Shown in pieces: positions 1,131 to 14,473 of a stretch of 14,473 bases of DNA. The notes under the pieces were generated by a model. The model worked only from the letters and a program-made list of their open reading frames with translations. It was not told where the DNA came from and ran no database searches. Each line of letters begins with the position of its first letter. Positions within the stretch are counted from its first letter, which is position 1. Position numbers and translations under genes: made by a program. Origin of the DNA: Candidatus Omnitrophota bacterium (GTDB lineage Bacteria > Omnitrophota > Gorgyraeia > Velamenicoccales > Velamenicoccaceae); assembly GCA_020057345.1 (NCBI GenBank), contig JAGVGA010000078.1, forward strand, positions 1-14,473, read 5' to 3'.

Positions 1131-2510
1131 CTACTGCGCGTATCCCAGGCTTCTGATCTTTTGCTTAAAATCCTCATCCGACTGAAATCTCGCGGATCGA
1201 TACGCACTCGCCCTCAACCTCTCTTGACGCTCTGCTAACAAAAGCTTCATCCTTTCAAAGACATCGCCCTTCTTCTCAGACAGATCGCCGGCCTCCCCGG
1301 GGTCTGACTCCAAATCAAAAAACTGATAGATTTTCCCGGGATAAGCGGGGAAAAAGATCTTTATATATTCGCTGTTTTCGTCTAAAGACTCCGGATACTG
1401 TATAAGTTTCCACGGGCCCTGGATCAAGGCGGTTATATCCCTGTAAAAAGAAAAAAGCTCTCTTCTTTGCGGAGCCCCGATTTTAAGAGAAACGCCCTCC
1501 AGCCCGGGGATCTGATTCTCTCCGATCTCATCTAATATCGTCGGAAAGATATCGATCAGCGCGGCGTTCTCATCGATCTTTTTGCCGAAGGCCTGTCCGG
1601 GCCGCTTCACGATCAGGGGGACCCTGACGATCTCATTAAAAAGCGTAAAGATATGATTAAAATAAAGGTGATGCTCGCCCAAGCTCTCCCCGTGGTCAGA
1701 CGTCAGGATGATCAGGCTCTTGTCGTAAAGGCCCCTCTTTTTCAACCCGTCCAGGAGCTTTCCGATCTCTTCATCCGCATAGCGGATAGCCCCGTCGTAT
1801 TGGGCGATATAATAATTAGGATCGTCGATGCCGTCCTGGGCGATAAGCGCAGGGATATAATCCCATCCGCCTTGATGGGATTTCTCGGATCTGCGAATAG
1901 GCAGAGGTCCGCCGGGTTTAAATGGATACAAGCTCCTGTAAGGCTCAGGCGAGCGATACGGCCTGTGAGAGCCTAAATAATAAACCCATAAAAAAAACGG
2001 CTTTTTTCGGGTCTCGGCCCAATGCAGAGCGGCCTCGGCAACGGAAGAGGGCGAAGGAATGGTCACTACCTCGTCGAGCACGGAACCGAAATTCTTCCTG
2101 AGATTCTCGAAAAAAATCCTCTGGTTACCGAAAACCCCAAGGGCAAAACCGTGGACTTTCAGGGATGAAAAAAGATTGGGCGCGGCCGGGTCCAGGACCG
2201 AATCCCAAAACTGCATCTTGTGTTCAGGCGTATATAGAGAAGTCAGCAGGGAATAATTCGAAGGGATGGTCCAGCTCCCCTGAGAAAAAGCATGGGCGAA
2301 CAGAGTGGCTCGGCGGGCCAGGGCATCGATGTGCGGGCTCGTGGGTCTCGAATACCCGTAACAGCCCAGATGGTCCGGCCGCAAGGCATCCACCATGATA
2401 AGGATGACATTCGGTTTCCCGGCGCCCTCTTTACGGCCAGGCCCCTTAACCAGAAAAAAACCGATAGACAGAAACAGTAAGAAAATGAAGAAGGAAATCT
2501 TTTTTTTCAT
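1131..2510 (-). CDS. Membrane-anchored or secreted sulfatase-fold (AlkP superfamily) enzyme with a Thr-type, NPP-like nucleophile motif; probably not a true sulfatase
   Basis: The ATG at 2510..2508 overlaps the cysN stop TGA at 2509..2507 (ATGA). The N-terminus is MKKK followed by a 17-residue hydrophobic stretch, ISFFIFLLFLSIGFFLV. Sulfatase-fold motifs are present: NVILIMVDALRPDHLGCYGY, ILTSDHGESLGEHH and FDLESDPGEAGDL. The nucleophile region reads SWTIPSNYSLLTSLY instead of C/S-x-P-x-R. The ORF-track start at 2543 is a TTG extension inside cysN and is not favoured. Confidence 0.8.
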   Translation of the reverse strand: MKKKISFFIFLLFLSIGFFLVKGPGRKEGAGKPNVILIMVDALRPDHLGCYGYSRPTSPHIDALARRATLFAHAFSQGSWTIPSNYSLLTSLYTPEHKMQFWDSVLDPAAPNLFSSLKVHGFALGVFGNQRIFFENLRKNFGSVLDEVVTIPSPSSVAEAALHWAETRKKPFFLWVYYLGSHRPYRSPEPYRSLYPFKPGGPLPIRRSEKSHQGGWDYIPALIAQDGIDDPNYYIAQYDGAIRYADEEIGKLLDGLKKRGLYDKSLIILTSDHGESLGEHHLYFNHIFTLFNEIVRVPLIVKRPGQAFGKKIDENAALIDIFPTILDEIGENQIPGLEGVSLKIGAPQRRELFSFYRDITALIQGPWKLIQYPESLDENSEYIKIFFPAYPGKIYQFFDLESDPGEAGDLSEKKGDVFERMKLLLAERQERLRASAYRSARFQSDEDFKQKIRSLGYAQ

Positions 2511-3745
2511 TCCAAGCCGGTGATAACGACGCCTGCGGCGCAAACCTGGCCGTCCGACTCAAGCACAAATCTTCCCAATTCTTCGACAGAGCCAAAAGGC
2601 TCGACGACAAAAGCCCGCTCGGTCTTCAGGATGATTTTGGCCATCTCATTGAGCTTGAGCGAAGCCGCCTCTTTTTCCAAAATCTCCAGGGCCGAAGGGT
2701 CCATGCGGTCACCGATGCTCTCAATCTCGCAGCTCAACTCCTGAGTGGCGCAGCGCAAGATCATCCTTGCCCCGCGGCTTAAAGGCTCATCGCAGAGCCA
2801 GAAGACGCGGCCCTGAAAGCGCTTAAAAGGCACAGGCGCTTTTTCAACCTGACAAAGAACATCCCCGCGCTTGATATCGGAAGAATTTTTTAGGACAACG
2901 CCGATGTTCTCGCCTGCGACGGCCAGGTCCTTCTGTTTAGCGTAAACCCTGATCTCTGCGACGGACGTCTTTTTCCCTGAAGGCAGCACAATCACATCCT
3001 GGCCGCGTTTCAGGCGTCCGGAGGCAACCCTCCCTAAGACCAAGACTTCTTTTTTTACCCTGTAAATATCCTGAACCGGGAAACGCAGCGGCTTATCTTT
3101 TCCTTGCGTCGGACATTCTAGAGAATCCAAAGCGCCCAATAAAGTCGGCCCTTTGTGCCATCGCAGGACCTGTGACCGGCGAAGAACATTTTCTCCGCTC
3201 TTGGCAGACACGGGGATGATCAACGGCGCCTTTAATTTGCTCTTGCTGAAAAAAAGTTCAACCTCAGAGGCTACGGATTCGAATCTGGATCTATCAAAAA
3301 CAGCCAGATCCATTTTATTGACAGCGACAAGGACCTTCTCGATGCCCAACAATTCAAAAAGGGCAATGAGCCTGCGCGTCTGTTCTGTTACGCCCTGCCC
3401 GACATCGACGATGAGGAGGGCGATGTCCGCCTGGGTTGCACCGGTCATCGTGTTTTTGATCAGCTCAACGTGGCCCGGGGTATCGATGAGGCAATACTTT
3501 CTTTTTTTTGTTTTAAAAAAGACCTGCGTCGTGTCGATGGTCCGCTCCTGCCTGCGCTCTTCTTCGAGCTGGTCCAATAAAAACGCCAGCTCCATATCTT
3601 TGCCTAAATCCGCGGAGGCCTTTTTAATCTCAAGAAGTTTTCCGTTGGATAAAGACCGGGTCTCAACGAGGATCCGGCCGATCAGCGTTGACTTTCCATG
3701 GTCAACCTGGCCGCAGATAACTATGGGGATGGCTTTCTTATCCAT
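2507..3745 (-). CDS. cysN: Sulfate adenylyltransferase subunit 1 (CysN/NodQ-type GTPase), short form without an APS kinase domain
   Basis: EF-Tu/CysN-type G motifs are present: GQVDHGKSTLIGRIL (G1), DTPGH (G3), NKMD (G4) and SAKSG (G5). By eye it is collinear with E. coli CysN (PLRFPVQ, VLPSGK and the beta-barrel domains). It lies immediately downstream of cysD. At 412 aa it ends before any CysC-like domain. Confidence 0.85.
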   Translation of the reverse strand: MDKKAIPIVICGQVDHGKSTLIGRILVETRSLSNGKLLEIKKASADLGKDMELAFLLDQLEEERRQERTIDTTQVFFKTKKRKYCLIDTPGHVELIKNTMTGATQADIALLIVDVGQGVTEQTRRLIALFELLGIEKVLVAVNKMDLAVFDRSRFESVASEVELFFSKSKLKAPLIIPVSAKSGENVLRRSQVLRWHKGPTLLGALDSLECPTQGKDKPLRFPVQDIYRVKKEVLVLGRVASGRLKRGQDVIVLPSGKKTSVAEIRVYAKQKDLAVAGENIGVVLKNSSDIKRGDVLCQVEKAPVPFKRFQGRVFWLCDEPLSRGARMILRCATQELSCEIESIGDRMDPSALEILEKEAASLKLNEMAKIILKTERAFVVEPFGSVEELGRFVLESDGQVCAAGVVITGLE

Positions 3746-3780
3746 AAAACCGAATCGGGCGTAACCTGTCTTTGGTGGGA

Positions 3781-4581
3781 TTACATATACCCCAGGCTTC
3801 TCAACCGCTGCATGGTGTACGTATCTTCCTTGTCCTGGGCCCGGCCGCTGCGTTCGGCGACCTTCGTCTTCTCAAGCTCTCGGATGATCTTTGCAATTGT
3901 GTCTGCCCGGGAATCTACCGGAGAACAACAAAGGGCGCACCCGATACTTCGGTAGCGCTTGCCCTTTTTTGCCAGGTAGAGCTCGACGATCGGGATCTTT
4001 TCGGCGAGGGTATACTTCCAGACATCCAGCTCTGTCCAGTGGAGCATAGGGTGAACGCGGATATGCTGTTCGCCCTCGAGCCGCGTCTTATAAAAATCCC
4101 AAAGCTCAGGCGGCTGGTCCTGATAGTTCCAGGTAAAATCCTCGGAGCGCGGGGAGAACACCCTCTCCTTAGCCCGTATGCCGTGCTCATCCCGCCGGAT
4201 AGCCAAGAGCAACGCCTGAAGGCCGCGTTCCCGGATTGTCTGTTTCAACGCCTCGGTCTTCAGTAAATTGCAGCACTCGAATTTGCCGAATTTCGGGTGG
4301 ATACCTTTTTGGAGGGCCTGCGCATTTTTGCTGATGACAAGATCCAGCCCCCATTTTTTGCTGTATTCATCGCGGAAGCGGTAGATCTCCGGGAACTTGA
4401 AGCCCGTATCGATATGAATCACGGGAAAAGGAACCGCGCCGAAAAAGGCCTTGCGTAAGATCCATAAGAGGGCTGTTGAATCTTTCCCCATCGACCACAG
4501 AAAGCCGACATTTTTGAAACGGCTGGTGGCCTCGCGAACGATATAGATGGTCCTGTTTTCCAGATCGCTCAGATAGCTCAT
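3781..4581 (-). CDS. cysD: Sulfate adenylyltransferase subunit 2 (CysD/NodP, PAPS-reductase-like PP-loop ATPase)
   Basis: Contains the PP-loop SMGKDSTALLWILRKAF, plus HIDTGFKFPE, RRDEHGIRAKERVFSPR and HPMLHWTELDVWKY, collinear with E. coli CysD. It lacks the ~30-aa insertion that E. coli CysD has before the C-terminal RxRxxGC segment. ATG at 4581 lies 4 nt after the folE stop. Confidence 0.9.
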   Translation of the reverse strand: MSYLSDLENRTIYIVREATSRFKNVGFLWSMGKDSTALLWILRKAFFGAVPFPVIHIDTGFKFPEIYRFRDEYSKKWGLDLVISKNAQALQKGIHPKFGKFECCNLLKTEALKQTIRERGLQALLLAIRRDEHGIRAKERVFSPRSEDFTWNYQDQPPELWDFYKTRLEGEQHIRVHPMLHWTELDVWKYTLAEKIPIVELYLAKKGKRYRSIGCALCCSPVDSRADTIAKIIRELEKTKVAERSGRAQDKEDTYTMQRLRSLGYM

Positions 4582-4585
4582 CGCC

Positions 4586-5143
4586 TTACCCCTTGATCAG
4601 CGCGAGGGTCTCGGAGCGCGTTTTTTCGTTTTCCTTGAAAACACCGCGCACCGCGCTGGTCACGGTCATGATCCCTGGTTTTTTTACCCCGCGCATGCTC
4701 ATGCACAAGTGCTCGGCCTCGATCACCACCATGACGCCCAGCGGCTTTAATTTATCCATGATGACGCTGGCGATCTCCGTGGTGAGCCGCTCCTGGACCT
4801 GAAGCCGGCGGGACAGGATATCGACGACGCGGACGATCTTGCTTAAGCCCGTGACGCGGCCGCCCTTGGGGATATAAGCGATATTGGCGCGACCGATAAA
4901 CGGCAACAGATGGTGCTCGCACACCGAATACAGCGGAATACCCTTCAAAAGCACGATCTCCTCATGCTTGTGGTCCAGAATGACCTCTAACTCTTTTTTT
5001 GGATCAACGCCTGTGCCTGAAAGGATCTCGGTATACATGTCCGCCACGCGCTCGGGCGTCTCCGAAAGATCCTTCCTCTTGGGGTCTTCGCCGATCGCCT
5101 CCAGGATCATCTGCGCCGCTTTTTTCAATTTCTGTTTATCCAT
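4586..5143 (-). CDS. folE: GTP cyclohydrolase I (FolE, type IA)
   Basis: Hallmark motifs [11 protein letters not shown] and [10 protein letters not shown] (the Zn-binding Cys/His/Cys set) are present. The 185 aa length is typical. ATG at 5143 is preceded by GAGGGAAAG. Confidence 0.95.
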
Positions 5144-5150
5144 CTTTCCC

Positions 5151-6542
5151 TCACTTCCCTATGCAAAATTTTGAGAAAATCACGTCCAAGAGCTTATCGC
5201 TAAAAACCTCGCCGGTCAGCGCGCCCAACCCGTCTACGGCTTTCCTTAAATCGAGCGCCACGAACTCAAGCGATAATTTCTTGGCGAGCGTCGCACAAGC
5301 AGCCTCGCAGGCCATAAGCGACTTCTTAAGGATATCCATGTGGCGCGCGTTAGAGACGACCGCCCCCTCGTCGGCAAACGGGCCGCCGTCAAAGACAGTC
5401 CTGTAGATCGCCTCTTCCAAAACTTCAATATTTTTGCCTTTGAGCGCCGAGACTTCGATCGCAGGCTTTGAAAAATTGGCCGCCATCGCCGGGACTTTGA
5501 TCCTCCTCTTTTTGTCGCTCTTGTTGACAACCACCAAGGCCTTCTTGTCTTTTATTTGTTGAGCAAGCGTCCAGTCTTCCTTGGTCAAAGCGCTGCTGCC
5601 ATCAAGGACAAAAAGCACAAGATCACACTCATGCAAAGCCTTGCGCGTCCGCAAAAGCGCTTCTTTCTCGATCTTATTGCGGTGTTTCAGCATGCCCGCG
5701 GTATCGATGAGCTGCACGGCCAGGCCCTTTATATTGATATATTCTTCGATCGTATCCCGCGTCGTCCCGGCGATTGACGTGACGATCGCGCGTTCCTGTT
5801 TTAAGATAGCATTTAATAACGACGATTTACCCACGTTGGGTTTTCCGAAAATGACGACCTTGAGCCCATCGCGTATGATCTTGCCCTTGAAACCGCGCTC
5901 GATGAGGTCTTTGAGCTGCGCGTTGACAGAAAAAAGCCTGTTTTGAAAACTCACAAGACTCACCGCGCTGATATCCTCCTCTGAAAAATCAACGGATGCC
6001 TCCATATCCGCCAGAATCTCGAGCATATTTTTCCTCAAGCTCTTGATCTGTCGGGAAATCGTTCCTGAAAGCTGGGACAGGCTGTTTTTGAGCGCCAGAT
6101 CGCTCTTGGCCCGGATGATATCCAGGACCGCCTCGGCCTGCGCCAGGTCCAGGCGGCCGTTCAAAAACGCCCTTTTGGTGAATTCCCCGGGTTCGGCCAT
6201 ACGCGCGCCGTTGGCTAAAACCAATTCCAGGATAAGAGCGAGCGGCCTGGCGCCGCCGTGCGAATTGATCTCGACCACGTCTTCGCGCGTATAGCTCTTA
6301 GGAGCACGCATCAGGGAAACGACGACCTCATCGACAATGACCCCTCGATCGCCGGCGATCCAGCCGTAACGCAGGGAAAAGGTTTTTGAATCAAGGATGG
6401 GTTTTTTATTTTTTGCCAGAAATACTTTATCGACGATGGCTGTCGCCTGAAGCCCGCTTAAACGCACGATGCCGATAGCCCCTTCTCCCCAGGGGGTCGC
6501 GATGGCAGCGATCGTGTCCTCGGCGAGAGCTACTTTCGCCAT
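5151..6542 (-). CDS. mnmE: tRNA uridine-34 5-carboxymethylaminomethyl modification GTPase MnmE (TrmE)
   Basis: The N-terminal folate-binding domain signature [22 protein letters not shown] is present. The G domain shows [20 protein letters not shown] and NKSD. The C-terminus has the invariant CIGK. ATG at 6542 overlaps the folC 3' end by 13 nt. Confidence 0.95.
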
Positions 6543-7906
6543 ATCGCCCTTGCTTCGCCTACGACAAACAACGACCCGGTGATGATCGCGACCTCTTCCT
6601 CTTTGATCTCCCGATTGAGAAATTCCAGCGCCTGCTCAACGGAATTTGTCACGGTCAAACCGCTTTTCTTAAAATAGGGCTTCAGTGTCTTTTCCGGATC
6701 CGCAGAGCGCGGATTATCCGCGCGCGTTAAGATAATCTTATCCGCCATAGGCTCAAGCTGCTCGACGATCCCTTTCAGGTCTTTATCCTCGGAGGCGCCG
6801 AAGACAAGCCACTTGCTGAATTTCTTGAATTCCTTCTCTAAAAAGTTAACAAGGCGGCTCGCGGAATCCCTGTTGTGGGCGCCGTCTAAGATAATAAAGG
6901 GCTTGGTGTGAATGACCTCCAGACGGCCCGGCCAAAAAGCGTTCCAGAGCCCGCGGCTCATGGAATCGCTGCGGATCCGGATGCCGTGCAAAGAGAGCGC
7001 CTCGCACGCCGCTAGACTTAAAGACGCGTTCACAAGCTGATGGGTGCCGAGCATGCGCGTTTTAAAGAAAAACGAGCCGTCGTTTAAGCCTTTATAGAAA
7101 AAGTCCTGGGACATCAGGTCCCCGGAAAGGCGCTTGAAATAAAAATCCTTTTCCATCTCGAAAAGCACCGACCCTTCCGACGCGGCCCTGCGCCTGAGGA
7201 CGTCCATCACTTCTTTTGTCTGGTTCGCCGTCACAGCCACGCCGACCCCGTCAGCCGCTCTTATGTTCGAAGACTTGATGATCCCGGCCTTCTCGTAAGC
7301 GATCTCGGGGAGCGTCTGGCCTAAGATCTGCTCGTGGTCGTAGCTGATGGGCGTGATCACGCTGACAAGCGCATTCGTCGCGTTGGTCGCATCAAACCTC
7401 CCGCCCAGGCCGGTCTCAAGAACAACAAAATCCACGCCCTTGTCTTTAAAATACATCAAGGCCACAACGGTGAGCACTTCAAAAAAGGTCAGCTTGTCCA
7501 GATTGGAAAAAGTATGGTGAAACGATTCGATCTTGGGCGCAAGCGACTCCAGGAGAGCGACAAAATCATTTTTCAGGATCATCCCCGGGAAAAAGATCTT
7601 TTCGTCCGCCGTGTTATTGGGATCCAGGATACGGATCCTCTCTCTCAAATCTTTCAGGTGGGGCGAAGTGTAGAGCCCGACGCGCAATCCTTCTTCTTTA
7701 AGGATATGGGCGATAAAACAAGAGGCCGAGCCCTTGCCTTTGGTGCCGGCGACATGGATGATTTTTAGCTGATCCTGGGGATCCCCAAGACAAGAAAGGA
7801 ATTTTCTGATCCTCTCGAACTTAAAAGCCGTAGAGTAGTGATAGTGAGTCTTTCTCTCGTAATTGACGAAAGACTCCAAATAGGTGATCGCTTCTTCGTA
7901 GGTCAT
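6530..7906 (-). CDS. folC: Folylpolyglutamate synthase / dihydrofolate synthase (FolC, Mur ligase family)
   Basis: Contains the Mur-ligase P-loop HVAGTKGKGS, plus YTSPHL, ETGLGGRFDATN, ISYDHEQILG and ILDGAHN. Length is 458 aa. ATG at 7906 lies 3 nt after the purH stop. Confidence 0.9.
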   Translation of the reverse strand: MTYEEAITYLESFVNYERKTHYHYSTAFKFERIRKFLSCLGDPQDQLKIIHVAGTKGKGSASCFIAHILKEEGLRVGLYTSPHLKDLRERIRILDPNNTADEKIFFPGMILKNDFVALLESLAPKIESFHHTFSNLDKLTFFEVLTVVALMYFKDKGVDFVVLETGLGGRFDATNATNALVSVITPISYDHEQILGQTLPEIAYEKAGIIKSSNIRAADGVGVAVTANQTKEVMDVLRRRAASEGSVLFEMEKDFYFKRLSGDLMSQDFFYKGLNDGSFFFKTRMLGTHQLVNASLSLAACEALSLHGIRIRSDSMSRGLWNAFWPGRLEVIHTKPFIILDGAHNRDSASRLVNFLEKEFKKFSKWLVFGASEDKDLKGIVEQLEPMADKIILTRADNPRSADPEKTLKPYFKKSGLTVTNSVEQALEFLNREIKEEEVAIITGSLFVVGEARAIWRK

Positions 7907-7909
7907 TAT

Positions 7910-9478
7910 TTAATGCTTAAAATGACGGATGCCCGTAAACACCATGGCGATGCCGGCCTTGTCTGCCGCGCGGATGACCTCGTCATCCGCTACTGAGCCA
8001 CCCGGCTGGATGATGGCCTTGATGCCGGCCTTCTTGGCTAACGCGATGTTGTCTGCTTTCGGAAAAAATGCATCGCTCGCCAGCACCGCGCCTTTGGCGC
8101 GTTTTCCCGCGCGCTTGATCGCCAAAGCGACCGAATCCACCCGGCTCGTCTGGCCCATGCCGATGCCGACAGTCTGATCGCCCTTGGCCAAAACGATAGC
8201 GTTTGACTTGACGTGCCGGCAAACCTTCCAGGAAAAAATGAGGCTGTCCAATTGAGCTTTCGTAGGTTTTTTCTTTGTTGCGACTTTTATATCCTTGGTT
8301 TCAAAATCTTTTACGTCTTGTTCCTGGACCAGAAGGCCGCCGTCGATCTTTTTCAGATCCAGCCCATGCCTGGCATTTGCGTTTTCGAAAGAAACTTCAA
8401 GCAGGCGCAGATTTTTTTTCAAGCCCAAAAGCTCGAGCGCCTCTTTTTCAAAACCCGGGGCCAGGATGCACTCCAAAAAACCGCTCTTTGAGATCGCTTT
8501 AGCCGCTCTAGCGTCAACGATCCTGTTTAAGCCGACGATGCCGCCGAACGCGGAAAGCGGATCTGTCTTCCATGCCTCCTGGAAAGCCTTAACTAAGTTT
8601 GCGTCCACAGCAACGCCGCATGGATTATTGTGCTTGATGACGCACGCGGCCGGCTTGTCGAAATCTTTGACGATCGTAAAGGCCGCCTGAAGATCAAGAT
8701 AATTGTTGAAAGAAAGTTCTTTGCCGTGGAGCTGCCTGGCCGTAACCAGGGAAGCGGCCACCGACGGGACGTCTTCGTACAGGGCGGCTTTCTGATGCGG
8801 ATTTTCGCCGTAACGGAGCACGGCCGCCTTCTTGAAATTCAAAGAAAGGGTGTCCGGCAAGACTTCCCCTTCTGCCTTTTTCTGATTCAGTTTTGCGCCT
8901 AAATACTGGGCGATCTGGCCGTCATAGCGCGAAGTCAATTTGAAGACTTCGATTGCAAGTTCTTTAAGCGTCCCCTCCGACACGCAGCCATTCGTGCGCT
9001 TCATCTCAGCCGAGATCCCCTCATAGAACCCCGGATCAGAGACAACAGCCACAAACCTGTAATTTTTTGATGCCGAGCGCAGCATGGACGGGCCGCCGAT
9101 ATCGATATTTTCGATCGCCTCCTCTAAGCTCACGCCTTCTTTTTTGATCGTCTGCGCGAACGGATAAAGATTCACCACCACCATATCGATGAGGCCGATG
9201 CCGTGCTTGTTGACCTGCTCCATGTGATCGGGGTTGTCGCGCAACGAAAGAAGGCCGCCGTGGATCTTCGGATGAAGCGTCTTGACGCGGCCGTCGAGCA
9301 TCTCGGGAAACCCCGTATAATCGGACATCTCGACTACGGACAGGCCGGCGCTCTTCAAGGCTTTGGCTGTCCCGCCGGTAGAAATGATCTCGACACCGAA
9401 AGAAGAAAGAAGTTTGGCAAAATCCACGATCCCGGTCTTGTCCGAAACACTGATGAGCGCCCGCTTGATCTTCAACAT
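7910..9478 (-). CDS. purH: Bifunctional AICAR transformylase / IMP cyclohydrolase (PurH)
   Basis: From the ATG at 9478 the protein starts MLKIKRALISVSDKTGIVDFAK (the MGS-like IMP cyclohydrolase domain). It also carries GRVKTLHPKIHGGLL and ends QPGGSVADDEVI...MVFTGIRHFKH. AAGGAG sits 6 nt upstream of this ATG. The 76 extra N-terminal codons of the 598-aa ORF overlap the upstream gene and are not PurH-like. Confidence 0.95.
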   Translation of the reverse strand: MLKIKRALISVSDKTGIVDFAKLLSSFGVEIISTGGTAKALKSAGLSVVEMSDYTGFPEMLDGRVKTLHPKIHGGLLSLRDNPDHMEQVNKHGIGLIDMVVVNLYPFAQTIKKEGVSLEEAIENIDIGGPSMLRSASKNYRFVAVVSDPGFYEGISAEMKRTNGCVSEGTLKELAIEVFKLTSRYDGQIAQYLGAKLNQKKAEGEVLPDTLSLNFKKAAVLRYGENPHQKAALYEDVPSVAASLVTARQLHGKELSFNNYLDLQAAFTIVKDFDKPAACVIKHNNPCGVAVDANLVKAFQEAWKTDPLSAFGGIVGLNRIVDARAAKAISKSGFLECILAPGFEKEALELLGLKKNLRLLEVSFENANARHGLDLKKIDGGLLVQEQDVKDFETKDIKVATKKKPTKAQLDSLIFSWKVCRHVKSNAIVLAKGDQTVGIGMGQTSRVDSVALAIKRAGKRAKGAVLASDAFFPKADNIALAKKAGIKAIIQPGGSVADDEVIRAADKAGIAMVFTGIRHFKH

Positions 9479-9484
9479 GTATCT

Positions 9485-9490
9485 CTCCTT
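9485..9490 (-). promoter_or_regulatory. Shine-Dalgarno (AAGGAG) for purH
   Basis: The minus strand reads TAAGGAGAGATACATG, giving 6-nt spacing to the ATG at 9478. Confidence 0.65.
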
Positions 9491-9518
9491 ATTTAAGGGA
9501 CAGAAGTGTACGTCCCCA

Positions 9519-10220
9519 TTAGACACTGAATTTGAATTCCATGATGTCGCCGTCTTTGACGATATACTCTTTGCCTTCCTGGCGCAGGTGCCCCTCATTC
9601 TTCGCCTGGTTGACATTACCGACTTTAACCAAGGCCTCATACGCCATGACCTCGGCGCGAATGAACCCGCGCGCGATATCCGAATGGATGCAGCCCGCCG
9701 CCTCAATCGCCGTCGCGTCCTTTCTCATCTCCCAGGCGCGCGACTCTTTGACGCCGCCGGTCAAGAAACTGACGCGGCCGGCCTGGTCATAGGCCTTGCG
9801 CGCGAGCACCGGCAAATCATCCGCCTCGACCTTGTCGATCAAAACAACCGGCTTGATCGTAACGAAATTATTATTGGCGATCCACTTCTTTTCCTCCTCG
9901 CTAAAAGTACCGGCGCACAAAGGCATCTCTTTTTCAAGGAGCTGCTGGCAACGGATCAAAAGGGCCTTCTCCTGGTCGCTCGCCGCCTTGGACAGCTTGC
10001 TTTCGACGATCTCCATGTCCATGATGAGGAGGTCCAATTTTTTCTCATTCAAACAGACGATCGCATCGGCATTTTTAAGGTCTTTTTCCGTTATGAATTC
10101 AACCTGAATGGCGGTGACCTTCGCAGAGCGGTAAAGCTCCTTTAACTTCTCCAGGCGCGCGTCAGGCAGGCTCTTTTTTCCAAAAGGAAAATCAGGGATT
10201 CCGAAAACACTGGCTTTCAT
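9519..10220 (-). CDS. YchF/OLA1-derived protein that keeps the helical and TGS (DUF933-like) C-terminal regions but lacks the P-loop NTPase motifs
   Basis: The C-terminal ~85 aa (ESRAWEMRKDATAIEAAGCIHSDIARGFIRAEVMAYEALV...LRQEGKEYIVKDGDIMEFKFSV) aligns by eye with the E. coli YchF C-terminus ([33 protein letters not shown]...[22 protein letters not shown]). The middle region (FSEEEKKWIANNNFVTIKPVVLI) matches the YchF helical insert. No GxxxxGKS/T, DxxG or NxxE motif is present. The ATG at 10220 is favoured, with GGAGAGG about 8 nt upstream. The GTG at 10229 is an alternative start. Confidence 0.75.
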   Translation of the reverse strand: MKASVFGIPDFPFGKKSLPDARLEKLKELYRSAKVTAIQVEFITEKDLKNADAIVCLNEKKLDLLIMDMEIVESKLSKAASDQEKALLIRCQQLLEKEMPLCAGTFSEEEKKWIANNNFVTIKPVVLIDKVEADDLPVLARKAYDQAGRVSFLTGGVKESRAWEMRKDATAIEAAGCIHSDIARGFIRAEVMAYEALVKVGNVNQAKNEGHLRQEGKEYIVKDGDIMEFKFSV

Positions 10221-10228
10221 AGACTTCA

Positions 10229-10237
10229 CCTCTCCTT
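10229..10237 (-). promoter_or_regulatory. Shine-Dalgarno region (AAGGAGAGG) for the YchF-like gene
   Basis: The minus strand reads TTTAAGGAGAGGTGAAGTCTATG. The purine-rich SD lies 8-11 nt upstream of the ATG at 10220, which is too close (2 nt) to serve the GTG at 10229. Confidence 0.55.
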
Positions 10238-10246
10238 AAAGTGGGC

Positions 10247-12205
10247 TTATTCCTCCTCGACCTTATGCCGAGGATACTGGGCGACGATCGACTGCGCGAT
10301 CTTTTGCGGCACTTCCTCATAATGGGAAAAACGCATGGTGTAACTTCCGCGGCCGCCGGTCATGGAACGAAGGTCGGTGGCATAGCGGAACATCTCGACC
10401 AAAGGCACCTGCGCCTTGATCGTCTGGTTTTTTGAACGGGCCTCGACGCCCATAACCCTCCCTCTGCGGGAATTCAGGTCTGACGGGATCGTGCCCATGT
10501 ACTCTTCGGGGACCGTGATCTCCACATCCATGATCGGTTCGAGAATAATTGGAACGGCGTCCATCGCCGCCTTGCGGAACGCAAGAGCCCCCGCGATCTG
10601 AAACGCGATGTCGGACGAATCGACATCGTGATAAGAACCGTCATAGAGGGTGACCCTGATATCAACCATGGGAAAACTTGTGATGACACCCCCCACCATG
10701 GCGTTGCGGATCCCCTTTTCCACCGAAGGAATGAAGTTACGCGGAATCGCGCCTCCGACGATCTTGTCCACAAATTCAAAAGCCTTGCCGCGCTCGATGG
10801 GCGCAAGCTCAATCCACACGTCGCCGTACTGGCCCCTGCCGCCGGACTGCTTCTTGTGTTTGCCCTGCGCCTTAGCCAATTTTTTCACCGTCTCTTTATA
10901 AGGGATCTTCGGCGTGCCGATCTCGACGGCAACGTTGTACCTTTCCTTTAGGCGCTTGACCATGACATCAATGTGCTGATCACCCATGCCTGAGATAACC
11001 GTCTCTTTGGTCTGTGTGTCGCGGGAGACCTTAAATGTTGGGTCGCTTGCGCAAAGCTTGGCGAGAGCCTCAGAGATCTTCTCCTCGTCCTGCCTCGTCT
11101 TTGGCTTGACCGAAGACGAGAAAACCGGTTCAGGAAAAACGATCGGGTCAAAAACCACCTGCTGCTTTTCATCGGAGAGCGTATCGCCCAGAAATGTCTC
11201 TTTGAGCTTGGCGACGGCCACGATATCCCCGCAAAAACCGGCCTGGATCGCGCGCTGCTCTTTACCCTGAAGGATCATGAGCTGACCTATCCTCTCTTTG
11301 GCGGTGCGCGAAGCGTTTAAAAAGCCGGTGTTGGAGGCAAGCTTGCCGGAAAATATCCTTAAGACCGTCAGCTGACCGACAAAAGGATCGGACACGGACT
11401 TAAATACAAACGCGGAAAAAGGCGCGTCTTCAGTCAGCTTGATCTGTTTTTTCTCCTGGGTATTCGGGTCAGAGGCGAAAACAGGCCTTCTGTCCAACGG
11501 CGAAGGCAGGTAATCGACAATGCCGTCCAGCAATTCCTTAAGGCCTTTGTCCGCGAAAGCCGAGCCGACGAAGATCGGATAGATCTTGCCTTCGACCACC
11601 GCACTTTTAAGCGACTTTTTCAGCTCCTCCTCTTTCATCTCTTTTCCTTCCAGATACTTTTCCAATAGGGCGTCGTCGCTTTCCGCGATGGTCTCGGTGA
11701 GCTCTGCCGAGAACGGCGTTTTGATGACGCAGGCGTTTTTGGAAAAACGCTCCTGAAGTTCTTTGATGATCGCCTCGACGCTCACATTCTCCTTATCGGT
11801 CTTATTGATAAAGATGAGCCTCGGTAAGCCCGCTTCTTCCAAAAGGTCCCAGGCGCGCTCGGTCCCGACTTCGATCCCGCCGGAAGCGTCGATCAAAATG
11901 ACCGCGCCGTCCACCGCGCGGACCGAAGAGATCATGTCCGCTATGAAATCCGCATATCCCGGGGTATCGACGATCTGAATAAAATGGTTTTTCCAGTTTA
12001 AGTTCAGGATGCTCGAATTGATGGAGTTCTTGCGGTCGATCTCATCGGCGTTGTAATCGCTGACCGTGTTGCCTTCGATGATCTTGCCTTTGCGCGACGT
12101 AGCGCCGGCGGCAAAAAGGAGGGCTTCGCAAAGAAACGTCTTCCCGGCCTGGGCATGCGAAACAAAAACAACGCTCCTTTTGGCTTCAGGTTTGACATTG
12201 TCCAT
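10247..12205 (-). CDS. Elongation factor G family paralogue (divergent, 652 aa) with non-canonical GTPase motifs
   Basis: All five EF-G domains are collinear with canonical EF-G: SHAQAGKT (G1), DTPGY (G3, with Tyr where His is expected), NKTD (G4), GSAFADKG (G5), YLPSPLD, SGMGDQHIDV, GGRGQYGD, TLYDGSYHDVDSS and YATDLRS. AGGAGA sits 6 nt upstream of the ATG at 12205. Confidence 0.85.
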   Translation of the reverse strand: MDNVKPEAKRSVVFVSHAQAGKTFLCEALLFAAGATSRKGKIIEGNTVSDYNADEIDRKNSINSSILNLNWKNHFIQIVDTPGYADFIADMISSVRAVDGAVILIDASGGIEVGTERAWDLLEEAGLPRLIFINKTDKENVSVEAIIKELQERFSKNACVIKTPFSAELTETIAESDDALLEKYLEGKEMKEEELKKSLKSAVVEGKIYPIFVGSAFADKGLKELLDGIVDYLPSPLDRRPVFASDPNTQEKKQIKLTEDAPFSAFVFKSVSDPFVGQLTVLRIFSGKLASNTGFLNASRTAKERIGQLMILQGKEQRAIQAGFCGDIVAVAKLKETFLGDTLSDEKQQVVFDPIVFPEPVFSSSVKPKTRQDEEKISEALAKLCASDPTFKVSRDTQTKETVISGMGDQHIDVMVKRLKERYNVAVEIGTPKIPYKETVKKLAKAQGKHKKQSGGRGQYGDVWIELAPIERGKAFEFVDKIVGGAIPRNFIPSVEKGIRNAMVGGVITSFPMVDIRVTLYDGSYHDVDSSDIAFQIAGALAFRKAAMDAVPIILEPIMDVEITVPEEYMGTIPSDLNSRRGRVMGVEARSKNQTIKAQVPLVEMFRYATDLRSMTGGRGSYTMRFSHYEEVPQKIAQSIVAQYPRHKVEEE

Positions 12206-12211
12206 GGTTCA

Positions 12212-12217
12212 TCTCCT
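12212..12217 (-). promoter_or_regulatory. Shine-Dalgarno (AGGAGA) for the EF-G-like gene
   Basis: The minus strand reads AACAGGAGATGAACCATG, giving 6-nt spacing to the ATG at 12205. Confidence 0.6.
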
Positions 12218-12266
12218 GTTTGAAATGACAAAAAACGATAAGGCTTAAGGAAGCCAAAAAGAGGGG

Positions 12267-13433
12267 CTATTCGACGTAGGTGTAGATCTTTCCCTTGTAA
12301 TTACGCAGGACATGCTTGCCCTTGTCCTGGGAGATGAGGTAATTCGGGCCGACGGGAATCTTGCCGCCGCCGCCGGGCGCGTCCACCACATAGGTCGGCA
12401 CCGCGTAGCCCGATGTGAAACCGCGCAGTTTTTCAATGATATTGATGCCCACCGCGACCGGCGTACGAAAATGCGCCGTTCCCTTGACCGGATCGCACTG
12501 ATAAATATAGTATGGCCTGACCCTTATCTTCAAAAGCTCATGCATCAGTTTTTTCATGATATAAGGTTTATCATTGATTCCTTTTAAAAGAACGGTCTGA
12601 CTGCCCAGCGGTATGCCGCTGTCGGCCAACATGTCGCAAGCAGCCTTGCACCTCTTGGAGATCTCCCTGGGATGATTGAAGTGCATGCTGATCCATAGAG
12701 GCTTGTATTTTTTGAGCATCGCGACAAAAGGCTCGGTGATGCGCTGCGGCAAAGATACGGGCACGCGCGTGCCCAGGCGGACAAATTCGACATGCGGGAT
12801 CGCGGTGACCTTCTTTAGGATCTCCTCGAGCTCGTCATCTTCCAGCATGAACGGATCGCCTCCGGAGATGAGCACGTCGCGGATCTTTTTATTGGAACGG
12901 ATATAGTCAATAGCGGCGTCGATCGTCTTAGAATTGATGGAAGAAACCTGTTTTTCTCCGACGAGCCTCCGGCGCGTGCAGTGGCGACAGTACATCGCGC
13001 ACTGCTCGGTGCCTAATAGAAGGACCCTGTCCGGATAACGGTGGACGAGGCCGCTGACAGGCGAATCCCTGTCCTCGGCGCACGGGTCAATGAACTCTTG
13101 ATTGCCGAAACGAAATTCGTCGATCAAAGGGATCGCCTGCCGGCGAATCGGACATTCCGGATCATTGGGATCCATAAGCGTCACCCAGTAAGGCGTGATC
13201 GCCATGGAGAGCCTGCCGTTGGATTTTTTGATCCCCTCTTCTTCCTGCGGCGTCAAGACAAGGACCTTGGCAATCGCCTCAAGGGTATGGATTCGGTTCT
13301 TGATCTGCCAATGCCAGTCTTCCCACGACTCTTCAGGGGTATCCTTCCATAGAGAAACCTTTTTGTAATCGCCGATGGAGCTGCGACGAAGGATGACTTG
13401 CGGCTGCTGAAGTTCGATGACGGGGATCGTCAA
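12267..13433 (-). CDS. kamA: L-lysine 2,3-aminomutase (radical SAM/PLP, KamA/AblA type), short form
   Basis: Near-continuous similarity by eye to Clostridium subterminale LAM: WEDWHWQIKNRI, SMAITPYW, DSPVSGLVHRYPDRVLLL, the radical-SAM CAMYCRHCTRRR, HFNHPRE, RVRPYYIYQCD and YVVDAPGGGGKIPV. The only start codon downstream of the upstream gene's stop that keeps the conserved N-terminus is the TTG at 13433. It has GGAGG 5 nt upstream and overlaps the upstream stop (TTGA). The ATG at 13640 would require a 200+ nt overlap. Confidence 0.85.
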   Translation of the reverse strand: MTIPVIELQQPQVILRRSSIGDYKKVSLWKDTPEESWEDWHWQIKNRIHTLEAIAKVLVLTPQEEEGIKKSNGRLSMAITPYWVTLMDPNDPECPIRRQAIPLIDEFRFGNQEFIDPCAEDRDSPVSGLVHRYPDRVLLLGTEQCAMYCRHCTRRRLVGEKQVSSINSKTIDAAIDYIRSNKKIRDVLISGGDPFMLEDDELEEILKKVTAIPHVEFVRLGTRVPVSLPQRITEPFVAMLKKYKPLWISMHFNHPREISKRCKAACDMLADSGIPLGSQTVLLKGINDKPYIMKKLMHELLKIRVRPYYIYQCDPVKGTAHFRTPVAVGINIIEKLRGFTSGYAVPTYVVDAPGGGGKIPVGPNYLISQDKGKHVLRNYKGKIYTYVE

Positions 13434-14434
13434 CTCTCCCTCCCCTCTTTTTTCAAGCCGACGCGCAGAAGAGCGATCTCCAAAATCTTGACGATGAGCC
13501 CGTTGAAAGTCCACCCTTCGGCCTTTGCCACCAGAGGAAAAACATCTTCCGTTGAAAGCGACGGCAGAGGATTGACCTCCAGAACATAAGGATTGCCCTT
13601 TTTGTCCACGCGAAAATCCACTCTTCCGAAATCGCGGCAATCCACCGCCTGATAAGCCTTGACCGCGAGGACGCGCAACTTATCCTCCAGGGCTTTTGAG
13701 ATCTTGGGCGGACAGATATAGCTGACGTCCGTGCCTTTCAGCCGCCGGGAGGTGTAAACAAGATCGCCTAAGTCCAGCTTGCCGAGTATGCCGATCTGCA
13801 CCGGCGCCAGCGCGCACGCAGGATCATTGCCGATGACGAGCACGGTGAATTCGCTTCCTGAAATAAACTCTTCCACAAGGGCGGACTGCTTGTAGATACG
13901 ATTCACCTCCAACACCTGGCCCTTCAATCTCTTTTTGTCCGATACGATCGAATCTTCGGAAATCCCCTTAGAAGACCCCTCATGCCTGGGCTTGACGATA
14001 AAAGGAAATCTCATGGACGTATGGTTTGTCAAGTCCGTACGCTCATCCGCGATAAAAAATTTTGGCGTCGGCACGCCGTCCGCAATGAAAACCTTCTTGG
14101 CCATGGCCTTATCCAGCGTCACGCCGAGGGTCAAGCCGTCGCTGCCCACAAAAGGGATCTTAAAAAAATCCAGGATGACGGGGACCTCGGATTCGCGGTT
14201 CCGGTTCCCCGCGCCCTCGCACATGTTGAAAACGATGTCCACGCCGGGCTTGGGGCACTTAGACAGGAGCTTGCGCGCATGGCCGATCTTGACGACTTCA
14301 TAACCTCCGGAGGCGATCGCTTCACAGACCTCGTTGATCGTCACCTGTCTGTCAAATTCCGCCTTCGCATCATTCGGCGATTCTTTGGTCTTTCGGTGGT
14401 CCGACTTTAAATCGTAAGTGAGTCCTATTCTCAT
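13430..14434 (-). CDS. D-alanine--D-alanine ligase family ATP-grasp enzyme (non-canonical subfamily, substrate unknown)
   Basis: Ddl-type ATP-grasp motifs are present: FPFIVKPRHEGSSKGIS, VEEFISGSEFTVLVIG and FGRVDFRVDKKGNPYVLEVNPLPSL. The N-terminus MRIGLTYDLKSD...AEFD differs from housekeeping DdlA/B. ATG at 14434 is favoured. The frame stays open to the window edge (14473), so a longer N-terminus cannot be excluded. Confidence 0.8.
   Translation of the reverse strand: MRIGLTYDLKSDHRKTKESPNDAKAEFDRQVTINEVCEAIASGGYEVVKIGHARKLLSKCPKPGVDIVFNMCEGAGNRNRESEVPVILDFFKIPFVGSDGLTLGVTLDKAMAKKVFIADGVPTPKFFIADERTDLTNHTSMRFPFIVKPRHEGSSKGISEDSIVSDKKRLKGQVLEVNRIYKQSALVEEFISGSEFTVLVIGNDPACALAPVQIGILGKLDLGDLVYTSRRLKGTDVSYICPPKISKALEDKLRVLAVKAYQAVDCRDFGRVDFRVDKKGNPYVLEVNPLPSLSTEDVFPLVAKAEGWTFNGLIVKILEIALLRVGLKKEGRES
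13439..13443 (-). promoter_or_regulatory. Shine-Dalgarno (GGAGG) for kamA, embedded in the last codons of the ATP-grasp gene
   Basis: The minus strand reads GGGAGGGAGAGTTGACG. GGAGG lies 5 nt upstream of the TTG at 13433, and the same stretch encodes G-R-E-S-stop of the upstream gene. Confidence 0.6.
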
Positions 14435-14473
14435 GAGATCGCCCTTAAAGAAAAAGGGACCCTTGCCTTTCAA

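Follow-up and report, generated by a model that had tools for sequence, protein, structure and literature searches.

A Ddl-like ATP-grasp ligase and a lysine 2,3-aminomutase beside two degenerate translation-factor homologues in Omnitrophota

Beta-lysine produced by EpmB, a KamA-family enzyme, is attached to the translation factor EF-P by EpmA. In methanogens, the lysine 2,3-aminomutase AblA and the acetyltransferase AblB provide the osmolyte N-epsilon-acetyl-beta-lysine. Ligases of the ATP-grasp superfamily include BacD/YwfE, which are Ddl-like L-amino-acid ligases, and carnosine synthase, which ligates a beta-amino acid, as well as RimK, TTL and LysX, which act on the protein tails of S6, tubulin and LysW, respectively. 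The 14,473-nt stretch of Omnitrophota DNA analysed here (contig JAGVGA010000078.1), henceforth referred to as the window, contains a block of four consecutive minus-strand genes encoding a D-alanine-D-alanine ligase (Ddl)-like ATP-grasp ligase, a KamA aminomutase, a paralogue of elongation factor G (EF-G) and a reduced YchF-like protein (mini-YchF). An initial annotation had suggested that the four genes constitute a translation-factor modification system. The present analysis disfavours that suggestion; the block probably consists of two independent gene pairs that adjoin through the unusually stable gene order of Omnitrophota. Neither the coupling of an aminomutase or beta-lysine to an ATP-grasp enzyme nor the pairing of EF-G2 with YchF was found described in the searchable literature, and no mention of these genes was found in the literature on Omnitrophota.

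The first pair can be compared with both beta-lysine systems. As in the EpmB/EpmA/EF-P system, a KamA-family radical SAM aminomutase would supply beta-lysine to a partner ligase that forms an amide bond. Unlike in that system, the aminomutase is of the LAM (lysine 2,3-aminomutase)/AblA type and its partner is a Ddl-like ATP-grasp enzyme, whereas the partner in the EpmB/EpmA system is a lysyl-tRNA synthetase paralogue; no efp, epmA, tRNA-synt_2 or EF-P genes were found in the gene-called local loci examined. The AblA/AblB system is similar in that a lysine 2,3-aminomutase is combined with an enzyme acylating or amidating beta-lysine to a small soluble product. It differs in its second enzyme, which is an ATP-dependent ligase of one to three domains here and a Gcn5-related N-acetyltransferase (GNAT) in the case of AblB, so the product of the present pair would be a peptide or amide and not an acetyl derivative. 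No acetyltransferase domain of the AblB kind was found among the called genes of the window's source contig and two related loci (L001, L002 and L004; loci are cited below by L numbers and protein clusters by P numbers).

The ligase and aminomutase pair

An alignment of the ligase was scanned against one genome per GTDB species, and 403 loci matched its motifs. The best 80 of these (L008-L087), which share at least 55% identity, were taken with 10-kb flanks. A metagenome scan with a seven-sequence ligase alignment added 75 loci that were Omnitrophota-like and a few that were Elusimicrobiota-like, which brought little taxonomic breadth. All array counts given here are drawn from these local loci. 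The nearest relatives of the window ligase are from Omnitrophota, one of them encoded in the complete Ca. Velamenicoccus archaeovorus genome. KamA is encoded no more than 800 bp from the last ATP-grasp gene in all 67 species loci and all 42 metagenome loci that extend far enough. ATPgrasp::KamA fusions were detected in at least 11 clusters at 90% identity, including P0296, P0406-P0412, P0414 and P0415; P0296 encodes a protein of 695 aa, and at least 10 further clusters share 47-78% identity. The reverse order, KamA::ATPgrasp, is present in P0368 (744 aa), and both fusion orders were confirmed by precomputed Pfam hits. The pair also recurs in Elusimicrobiota, the sole phylum named when the ligase clusters were assigned to taxa, with KamA located after the ligase at a distance of ~0.6 kb (L094) or ~4 kb downstream (L088). 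An additional arrangement, in L093, is KamA followed by a double ATP-grasp and then a third ATP-grasp. No EF-G or YchF genes were found beside the fused and non-Omnitrophota versions examined. Because of the invariant adjacency, the fusions in both orders and the recurrence outside the phylum, ATP-grasp and KamA are regarded as a genuine functional unit, an autonomous and mobile module in which fusion is frequent. Within Omnitrophota, this module is core. The beta-lysine/ATP-grasp module recognised in the initial annotation is thereby confirmed as a unit.

The window KamA contains Radical_SAM and LAM_C domains. It narrowly passes TIGR03820, the AblA equivalog model (527.9 against a cutoff of 525.4), fails the EpmB model TIGR03821 (238.7 against 369.3), and aligns over its full length, with a short C-terminus, to the LAM of Clostridium subterminale (2A5H; 484 bits). 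The radical-SAM motif CxxxCxxC is present (CAMYCRHC), and the equivalents of Asp293, Asp330 and Lys337 of 2A5H are kept within YIYQCD and VVDAPGGGGK. In the C. subterminale enzyme, Asp293 and Asp330 presumably hold the epsilon-ammonium group of lysine, and Lys337 presumably binds pyridoxal 5'-phosphate. The catalytic and lysine-site motifs are present in nearly all KamA copies of the loci, and we infer from these residues that the window enzyme is lysine-specific. Glutamate or arginine 2,3-aminomutase identity was considered and rejected, as both Asp ligands are present and the scores with those models are far under the cutoffs.

The ligase matches PF07478 (Dala_Dala_lig_C) at 120.5 bits and solved Ddl structures at ~25-30% identity. 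An AlphaFold2 (AF2) model of the protein (predicted local distance difference test score, pLDDT, of 84) was of low confidence only in the four C-terminal residues and in two mobile loops of the active site, and its top 50 PDB matches were all Ddl or D-Ala:D-Lac ligases, with query-normalised TM-scores (TMq) of 0.68-0.78. RimK, TTL and LysX structures were absent from these 50 matches. RimK and TTL profiles gave 28.3 bits (over half of the profile) and 21.5 bits, respectively. By profile score and predicted fold, the ligase is thus of the Ddl type and not of the RimK/TTL type. Like Ddl and Ddl-like L-amino-acid ligases, it has the three-domain ATP-grasp fold and keeps the ATP/Mg residues (KPxxEGSSKG, GRVD and LEVN in the alignment to 4ZQI), and an acyl-phosphate mechanism with a dipeptide-like product is predicted. 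Unlike Ddl, it carries the 'ATP-grasp 1' family motifs TYDLKSD / AEFD / NxxEGxxxRNRES / NPLPSLSTEDVF, the first two in its N-terminal part; its omega loop is longer, and it occurs linked or fused with an aminomutase. The D-Ala site also differs from that of Yersinia pestis Ddl: HG is replaced by EG, the K of the KY pair by V and S-L by D-V (E-D-V in NPLPSLSTEDVF). These replacements are invariant or near-invariant within the family. The D-Ala-binding residues were assumed to be His63, Lys215 and Ser281/Leu282 in E. coli DdlB numbering. It may be speculated that the acidic replacements in the substrate site would suit a cationic diamino substrate.

A housekeeping role as D-Ala-D-Ala ligase, with incidental adjacency to kamA, would agree with the source annotations ('D-alanine-D-alanine ligase') and with the Ddl-like fold. 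Additionally, K01921 was reported in 176/176 complete Omnitrophota genomes (10.64898/2026.06.07.730766), and the gene so reported might be the window ligase gene. Against such a role, the ligase scores under every NCBIfam Ddl cutoff (NF002378, 181.8 against 243; TIGR01205, 153.5 against 245.65), its D-Ala-binding positions are substituted, and it is tandem-duplicated or fused to a second copy or to KamA. Gene calling in the annotated loci yielded no mur or fts genes, and a cell-division/cell-wall (dcw) cluster never adjoins the ligase. A housekeeping Ddl is accordingly hardly credible.

When the representatives of clusters at 50% identity were searched exhaustively, 885 clusters were placed in the ligase family at E<1e-30, many of which are tandem two-domain fusions of 650-700 aa. 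In most Omnitrophota (L021-L087, L099-L173), a second ligase of ~38% identity lies 3' of ATP-grasp 1, as in L039 (Table 1). The two differ exactly in the omega loop and the C-terminal substrate motif: ligase 2 has a longer omega loop and GLDPKESNF, and ligase 1 has SLSTEDVF. This divergence fits two successive, different ligations. The clade of the window has a single ligase and no ligase 2, which points to a probable one-ligation product that is possibly one residue shorter.

In the mechanism that these features suggest, KamA would turn L-lysine into beta-lysine, as indicated by its conserved catalytic and lysine-binding residues, and the ligase would form an ATP-dependent amide bond involving beta-lysine via an acyl-phosphate, as indicated by the chemistry of its family and the gene fusions. 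Most lineages have tandem ligases, and some have three ligase domains. The product would most likely be a small beta-lysine amide, dipeptide or short oligomer rather than a modified protein.

The EF-G paralogue and mini-YchF

The EF-G paralogue has all five EF-G domains, with a shortened G' region, and scores above the cutoff of NF009381, a broad subfamily model for 'elongation factor G' (864 against 583). It remains below the curated EF-G2 models (NF009377, 610 against 890; NF058620, 537.9 against 1000). It also departs from canonical fusA in switch II (DTPGYADF), in the P-loop (SHAQAGKT) and in its location, which is between kamA and a ychF remnant instead of in the str operon. All 38 full-length orthologues have Tyr at the catalytic His position (DxPGYxDF), and the protein is predicted from this His-to-Tyr replacement to lack GTPase activity. 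A canonical EF-G (AHIDAGKTT, DTPGHVDF) is present in L047, and a canonical S12-S7-EF-G-EF-Tu operon was reported in complete Omnitrophota genomes (preprint 10.64898/2026.06.07.730766); the EF-G gene of the block is therefore a paralogue. It resembles the EF-G2/EFG-II types in being a second EF-G beside canonical fusA, with five domains, a divergent G domain and a replaced catalytic His. It differs from EF-G2 in that it is nearer to canonical EF-G than to Thermus thermophilus EF-G-2 (613 against 457 bits), has the shortened G' and is partnered by mini-YchF. Translocation by the EF-G2 of Bacteroides reportedly does not require GTP hydrolysis (Han et al. 2023, as cited in PMC12775393).

The C-terminus of the paralogue drew attention in the initial annotation as an acidic tail, and its sequence was given there correctly as ...HKVEEE, encoded by GAG GAG GAA TAA at 10258..10247. 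Among the orthologues, a K(K)xEE motif is kept near the C-terminus, and the proteins end in EEE, EEG, EEV, EEQ, EEVSH, EETSR, EEDIN, EVEV or DIEI. The near-terminal EE motif is thus a conserved feature, whereas the terminal Glu is not, the last residue being E, G, V, Q, R, H, N, L or I. With such variable tails there is no conserved C-terminal Glu of the sort used by RimK- or LysX-type ligases.

A separate EF-G observation was made in L047 (JAZDEX010000035.1, an Omnitrophota metagenome-assembled genome), where an open reading frame (ORF) of 1,036 aa lies directly upstream of ATP-grasp 1. It encodes a hydrophobic N-terminal helix and ~300 aa of coiled-coil plus Pro/Glu-rich sequence in frame with the full canonical EF-G (AHIDAGKTT, DTPGHVDF, NKMD). 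The 348 codons 5' of the EF-G core are free of stops, compared with 21 and 37 stops in the other frames over the same 1,020 nt, and GGAG is found 4 nt ahead of the ATG. The ORF may encode a membrane-tethered or N-terminally extended EF-G.

Mini-YchF has a single Pfam match, to the YchF C-terminal domain PF06071 (112 bits). It aligns to the YchF structure 1JAL at residues 42-72, 167-212 and 265-363 only, with residues 1-41, 73-166 and 213-264 missing. The G domain is shortened by approximately 130 residues, a loss that takes in the P-loop, switch I and the G3 motif; there is no MMR_HSR1 match, the P-loop is degenerate (GIPDFPFGKK), and the TIGR00092 score is 131 against a cutoff of 279. The protein is presumably not an NTPase. 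The helical domain and the TGS-like C-terminal domain are retained, as indicated by PF06071 and by the fold of an AF2 model (pLDDT 94.4) that matches YchF/OLA1 structures with TMq values of 0.73-0.84 and target-normalised TM-scores (TMt) of ~0.55. These matches include 8KIE, in which YchF is bound to the 50S subunit. Mini-YchF therefore shares with YchF/OLA1 the fold, the TGS-like domain and, in L100, the genomic slot, and is distinguished from them by the loss of the nucleotide-binding parts of the G domain and by its restriction to Omnitrophota. The family is essentially Omnitrophota-only and ~233 aa long throughout.

In L100, the slot of mini-YchF after kamA is occupied by a 351-aa YchF with the P-loop GLPLSGKTS. 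Since a P-loop form occurs at the same position, the 233-aa form is best read as a reduced ychF orthologue, and a stepwise reduction of ychF in situ within Omnitrophota is suggested. The EF-G paralogue and mini-YchF would be degenerate ribosome-binding factors that occur as a facultative pair and are probably co-translated. Their transcript most likely also covers purH-folC-mnmE-folE.

Gene order and the relation between the two pairs

The synteny of the block was examined by tblastn of ten window proteins against the species and metagenome loci. Across the phylum, the order is ATP-grasp1, (ATP-grasp2), KamA, [EF-G], [YchF-like], PurH, FolC, MnmE, FolE, where square brackets mark the facultative factors. 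Among the 59 species loci with a complete KamA..PurH interval, 33 contain EF-G and the YchF-like gene, 15 the YchF-like gene only, 10 neither and one EF-G only. The array thus lacks EF-G in 25 of the 59 loci and both factors in 10, whereas the ATP-grasp-KamA module is present in every case. Loci with neither factor have a coiled-coil lipoprotein gene or unrelated genes in the slot. The four genes are consecutive in 15 of the 20 metagenome loci with a complete interval. The recurrence of the four-gene order in other genomes, which the initial annotation had put forward as a check, was therefore observed. It was not specific to the four genes: purH-folC-mnmE-folE comes next after the block in L002, in L004 and in most of the best 80 species loci, and the upstream genes (PilZ protein, HhH-GPD, M20 peptidase, PAC2 and HAD) are conserved in ~35 of 51 loci. 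The conserved order belongs to the whole chromosomal region and not to these four genes, and since the flanking genes are equally syntenic, adjacency carries little functional information in Omnitrophota.

Median gaps along the array are 0 bp between ligases 1 and 2, 62 bp between ligase and KamA, 202 bp (up to 5.3 kb) between KamA and EF-G, 12 bp between EF-G and the YchF-like gene, 41 bp between the latter and PurH, and 4-66 bp further downstream. The kamA/EF-G junction is the weakest link, being the widest and the most often interrupted. A recurrent third partner at this junction was considered and rejected: the insertions share no relationship and comprise genes for a response regulator, HTH proteins, membrane proteins and a protein of 1,696 aa.

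The coordinates of the window genes and of the other features mentioned are given in Table 1. Nearly the whole 14.5-kb window is a single minus-strand array, with 11 of 12 genes on that strand in the order ATP-grasp, kamA, EF-G, YchF-like, purH, folC, mnmE, folE, cysD, cysN and sulfatase, and with gaps of -37 to 61 bp. Tight same-strand packing is unremarkable by itself in this window. The TTG start of kamA overlaps the TGA of the ligase gene by 4 nt (TTGA), so that the two genes are translationally coupled. The distance from the EF-G paralogue to the YchF-like gene is 26 bp from the ATG of the latter, or 17 bp if the GTG at 10229 is the start, and Shine-Dalgarno sequences of the GGAG type precede kamA, the EF-G paralogue and the YchF-like gene. 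Genes called independently on the source contig (L001, JGI metagenome 3300037264), which was located through the EF-G paralogue, have the same boundaries. No exact match was found for the YchF-like protein as read from the GTG. In all of these particulars (the consecutive same-strand genes, their coordinates, the 4-nt overlap, the gaps and the Shine-Dalgarno sites) the initial annotation was correct, and domain searches upheld its family labels for all four genes.

Table 1 Coordinates of the window genes and of features in related loci.
Feature	Sequence	Coordinates	Strand	Remark
Ddl-like ATP-grasp ligase	Window	13430..14434	-	334 aa
kamA	Window	12267..13433	-	388 aa; TTG start
kamA/EF-G intergenic gap	Window	12206..12266	-	61 bp
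Hairpin in the kamA/EF-G gap	Window	12242..12255		
EF-G paralogue	Window	10247..12205	-	652 aa
YchF-like gene (mini-YchF)	Window	9519..10220	-	233 aa from ATG
purH	Window	7910..9478	-	Context gene
folC	Window	6530..7906	-	Context gene
mnmE	Window	5151..6542	-	Context gene
folE	Window	4586..5143	-	Context gene
cysD-cysN (35-bp gap), then sulfatase	Window	2507..4581 (listed region)		Array continuation beyond folE
ABC ATPase and membrane proteins	L001	442..2002		
ABC ATPase and membrane proteins	L004	3337..4888		
ABC ATPase and membrane proteins	L097/L098	~2530..4810		
Second tandem ligase	L039	10982..11983		
N-terminally extended EF-G ORF	L047	6661..9771	+	1,036 aa
P-loop YchF	L100	14073..15128	+	351 aa
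Coiled-coil lipoprotein	L029	13243..13824		~190 aa; equivalents in L033, L049, L064, L071, L076
Coiled-coil lipoprotein	L100	15125..15700		
ATPgrasp::KamA	L090	5022..7057		
ATPgrasp::KamA	L092	7959..9991		
Peptidase_S58	L089	5226..6368	+	362 bits

The 61-bp kamA/EF-G gap is the widest intergenic gap of the window array. It contains a hairpin, GGCTT-CCTT-AAGCC, followed by the T-run TTATCGTTTT, and folds at -14.1 kcal/mol (z = -2.0). A strong intrinsic terminator was considered in this gap and rejected, the hairpin being weak with 5 bp and terminator-like sites showing no enrichment.

Attachment of beta-lysine or a beta-lysine peptide by the ligase to the acidic tail of the EF-G paralogue, or to mini-YchF, was weighed against these data. 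The four genes are consecutive in more than half of the species loci and in most of the metagenome loci with a complete interval, the K(K)xEE motif is conserved, and ATP-grasp enzymes that act on protein Glu tails exist (RimK, TTL and LysX). The block resembles those systems in having a ligase of the ATP-grasp superfamily next to an EF-G paralogue with an acidic near-terminal EE. It differs from them in the marginal similarity of the ligase to RimK and TTL, the Ddl folds, the lack of a conserved acceptor Glu and the inconsistent co-occurrence of ligase and acceptor. The module is invariant where one or both factors are missing, the fusions and the modules of other phyla have no translation-factor neighbours, and kamA/EF-G is the least conserved junction of the array. 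Such tail modification is consequently highly unlikely, and no sign was seen that the adjoining translation-factor homologues are targets of the module. Slightly broader, and still very improbable, is a protein-directed, EpmA-independent beta-lysyl ligase for EF-P, the GTPase-dead EF-G paralogue or mini-YchF; the Omnitrophota gene order would then mirror that link, and the fused and tandem versions elsewhere would serve other clients.

The interpretation of the block as two independent pairs is not free of contrary observations. Some members of the ligase family have no KamA gene beside them (L089 and L095-L098, Elusimicrobiota-like loci among them), so beta-lysine is perhaps not its sole substrate. 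In one fusion clade, represented by L090 and L092, the KamA domain has Gln at the first lysine-binding Asp position (Asp293), which suggests another amino-acid substrate there. The residue numbering of the Ddl and LAM functional sites follows the literature on E. coli DdlB and C. subterminale LAM. The ligase family is without a characterised close homologue. Regarding the separation of the pairs, the gap hairpin is a weak hint, as the 12 terminator-like sites in 7800..14473 do not exceed the number expected from shuffled sequence (8.1 +/- 2.9). The four-gene order persists down to 35-44% mini-YchF identity, and genomes without EF-G or the YchF-like gene in the array could encode these elsewhere.

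Two side observations concern the array itself. A conserved ~190-aa coiled-coil lipoprotein (signal peptide and Cys) is encoded in the kamA-purH interval of lineages that have neither factor (Table 1). Additionally, purH, folC, mnmE and folE are all folate- or GTP-linked, and the junctions from purH through folC, mnmE and folE to cysD are overlaps or gaps of at most 7 bp. The purH-to-folE stretch is conserved across the phylum, whereas cysDN is not.

Candidate products and accessory genes

The module might also modify another macromolecule, for example EF-P in an EpmA-independent manner, a peptidoglycan precursor or the tail of a folate or pterin cofactor. The module is core to the phylum, as indicated by the 403 species loci and the identity among the best 80, and this pattern suggests a housekeeping role rather than a secondary metabolite. 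The linkage to folate and purine genes is persistent in Omnitrophota, and ATP-grasp chemistry is compatible with acylation of a Lys amine or addition to a carboxylate tail. The D-aspartate ligase of Enterococcus (peptidoglycan) and MptN and CofF (cofactor tails) offer analogies. Against this explanation, no recurrent efp, epmA, mur or pterin-tail genes were found by the module in the gene-called loci, and the folate genes are absent from the non-Omnitrophota contexts. Furthermore, KamA is of the AblA/LAM type and not of the EpmB type, and the ligase has the closed fold of small-molecule ligases. Modification of another macromolecule is thus considered fairly unlikely.

If the reading of the ligase and KamA as a route to a small beta-lysine product is true, a Ddl-like ATP-grasp enzyme combined with a 2,3-aminomutase would be a widespread means of making amides or peptides of beta-amino acids with neither the ribosome nor non-ribosomal peptide synthetases (NRPS); the ligase family alone comprises hundreds of sequence clusters. 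Because the module is core to a phylum of ultra-small, host-dependent bacteria, its product could belong to a new metabolite class and might, for example, serve as an osmolyte, form part of the envelope or be a polycationic peptide. The EF-G paralogue and mini-YchF would be natural 'motor-dead' factors and may help to probe roles that are independent of NTP hydrolysis. As a caution for similar genomes, where gene order is very stable, conserved adjacency alone is no sign of common function.

Further genes were noted beside the module. In L090 and L092, ATPgrasp::KamA is preceded by a ~305-aa protein without Pfam domains and by a class I/II aminotransferase. In L089, a fused double ATP-grasp gene has a neighbour of the Peptidase_S58 (DmpA/BapA) family that overlaps its end. 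Peptidases of this family presumably remove beta-amino acids from N-termini, an activity that would agree with a beta-peptide as the product. Lastly, an ATP-binding cassette (ABC) transporter ATPase and one or two unannotated membrane proteins are encoded just upstream of the ligase in three contexts (Table 1), namely the contig of the window, 9 of 51 loci from Omnitrophota, and Elusimicrobiota-like contigs that are AT-rich and have no adjacent kamA. This set could be an exporter of the product or could be placed there by chance.

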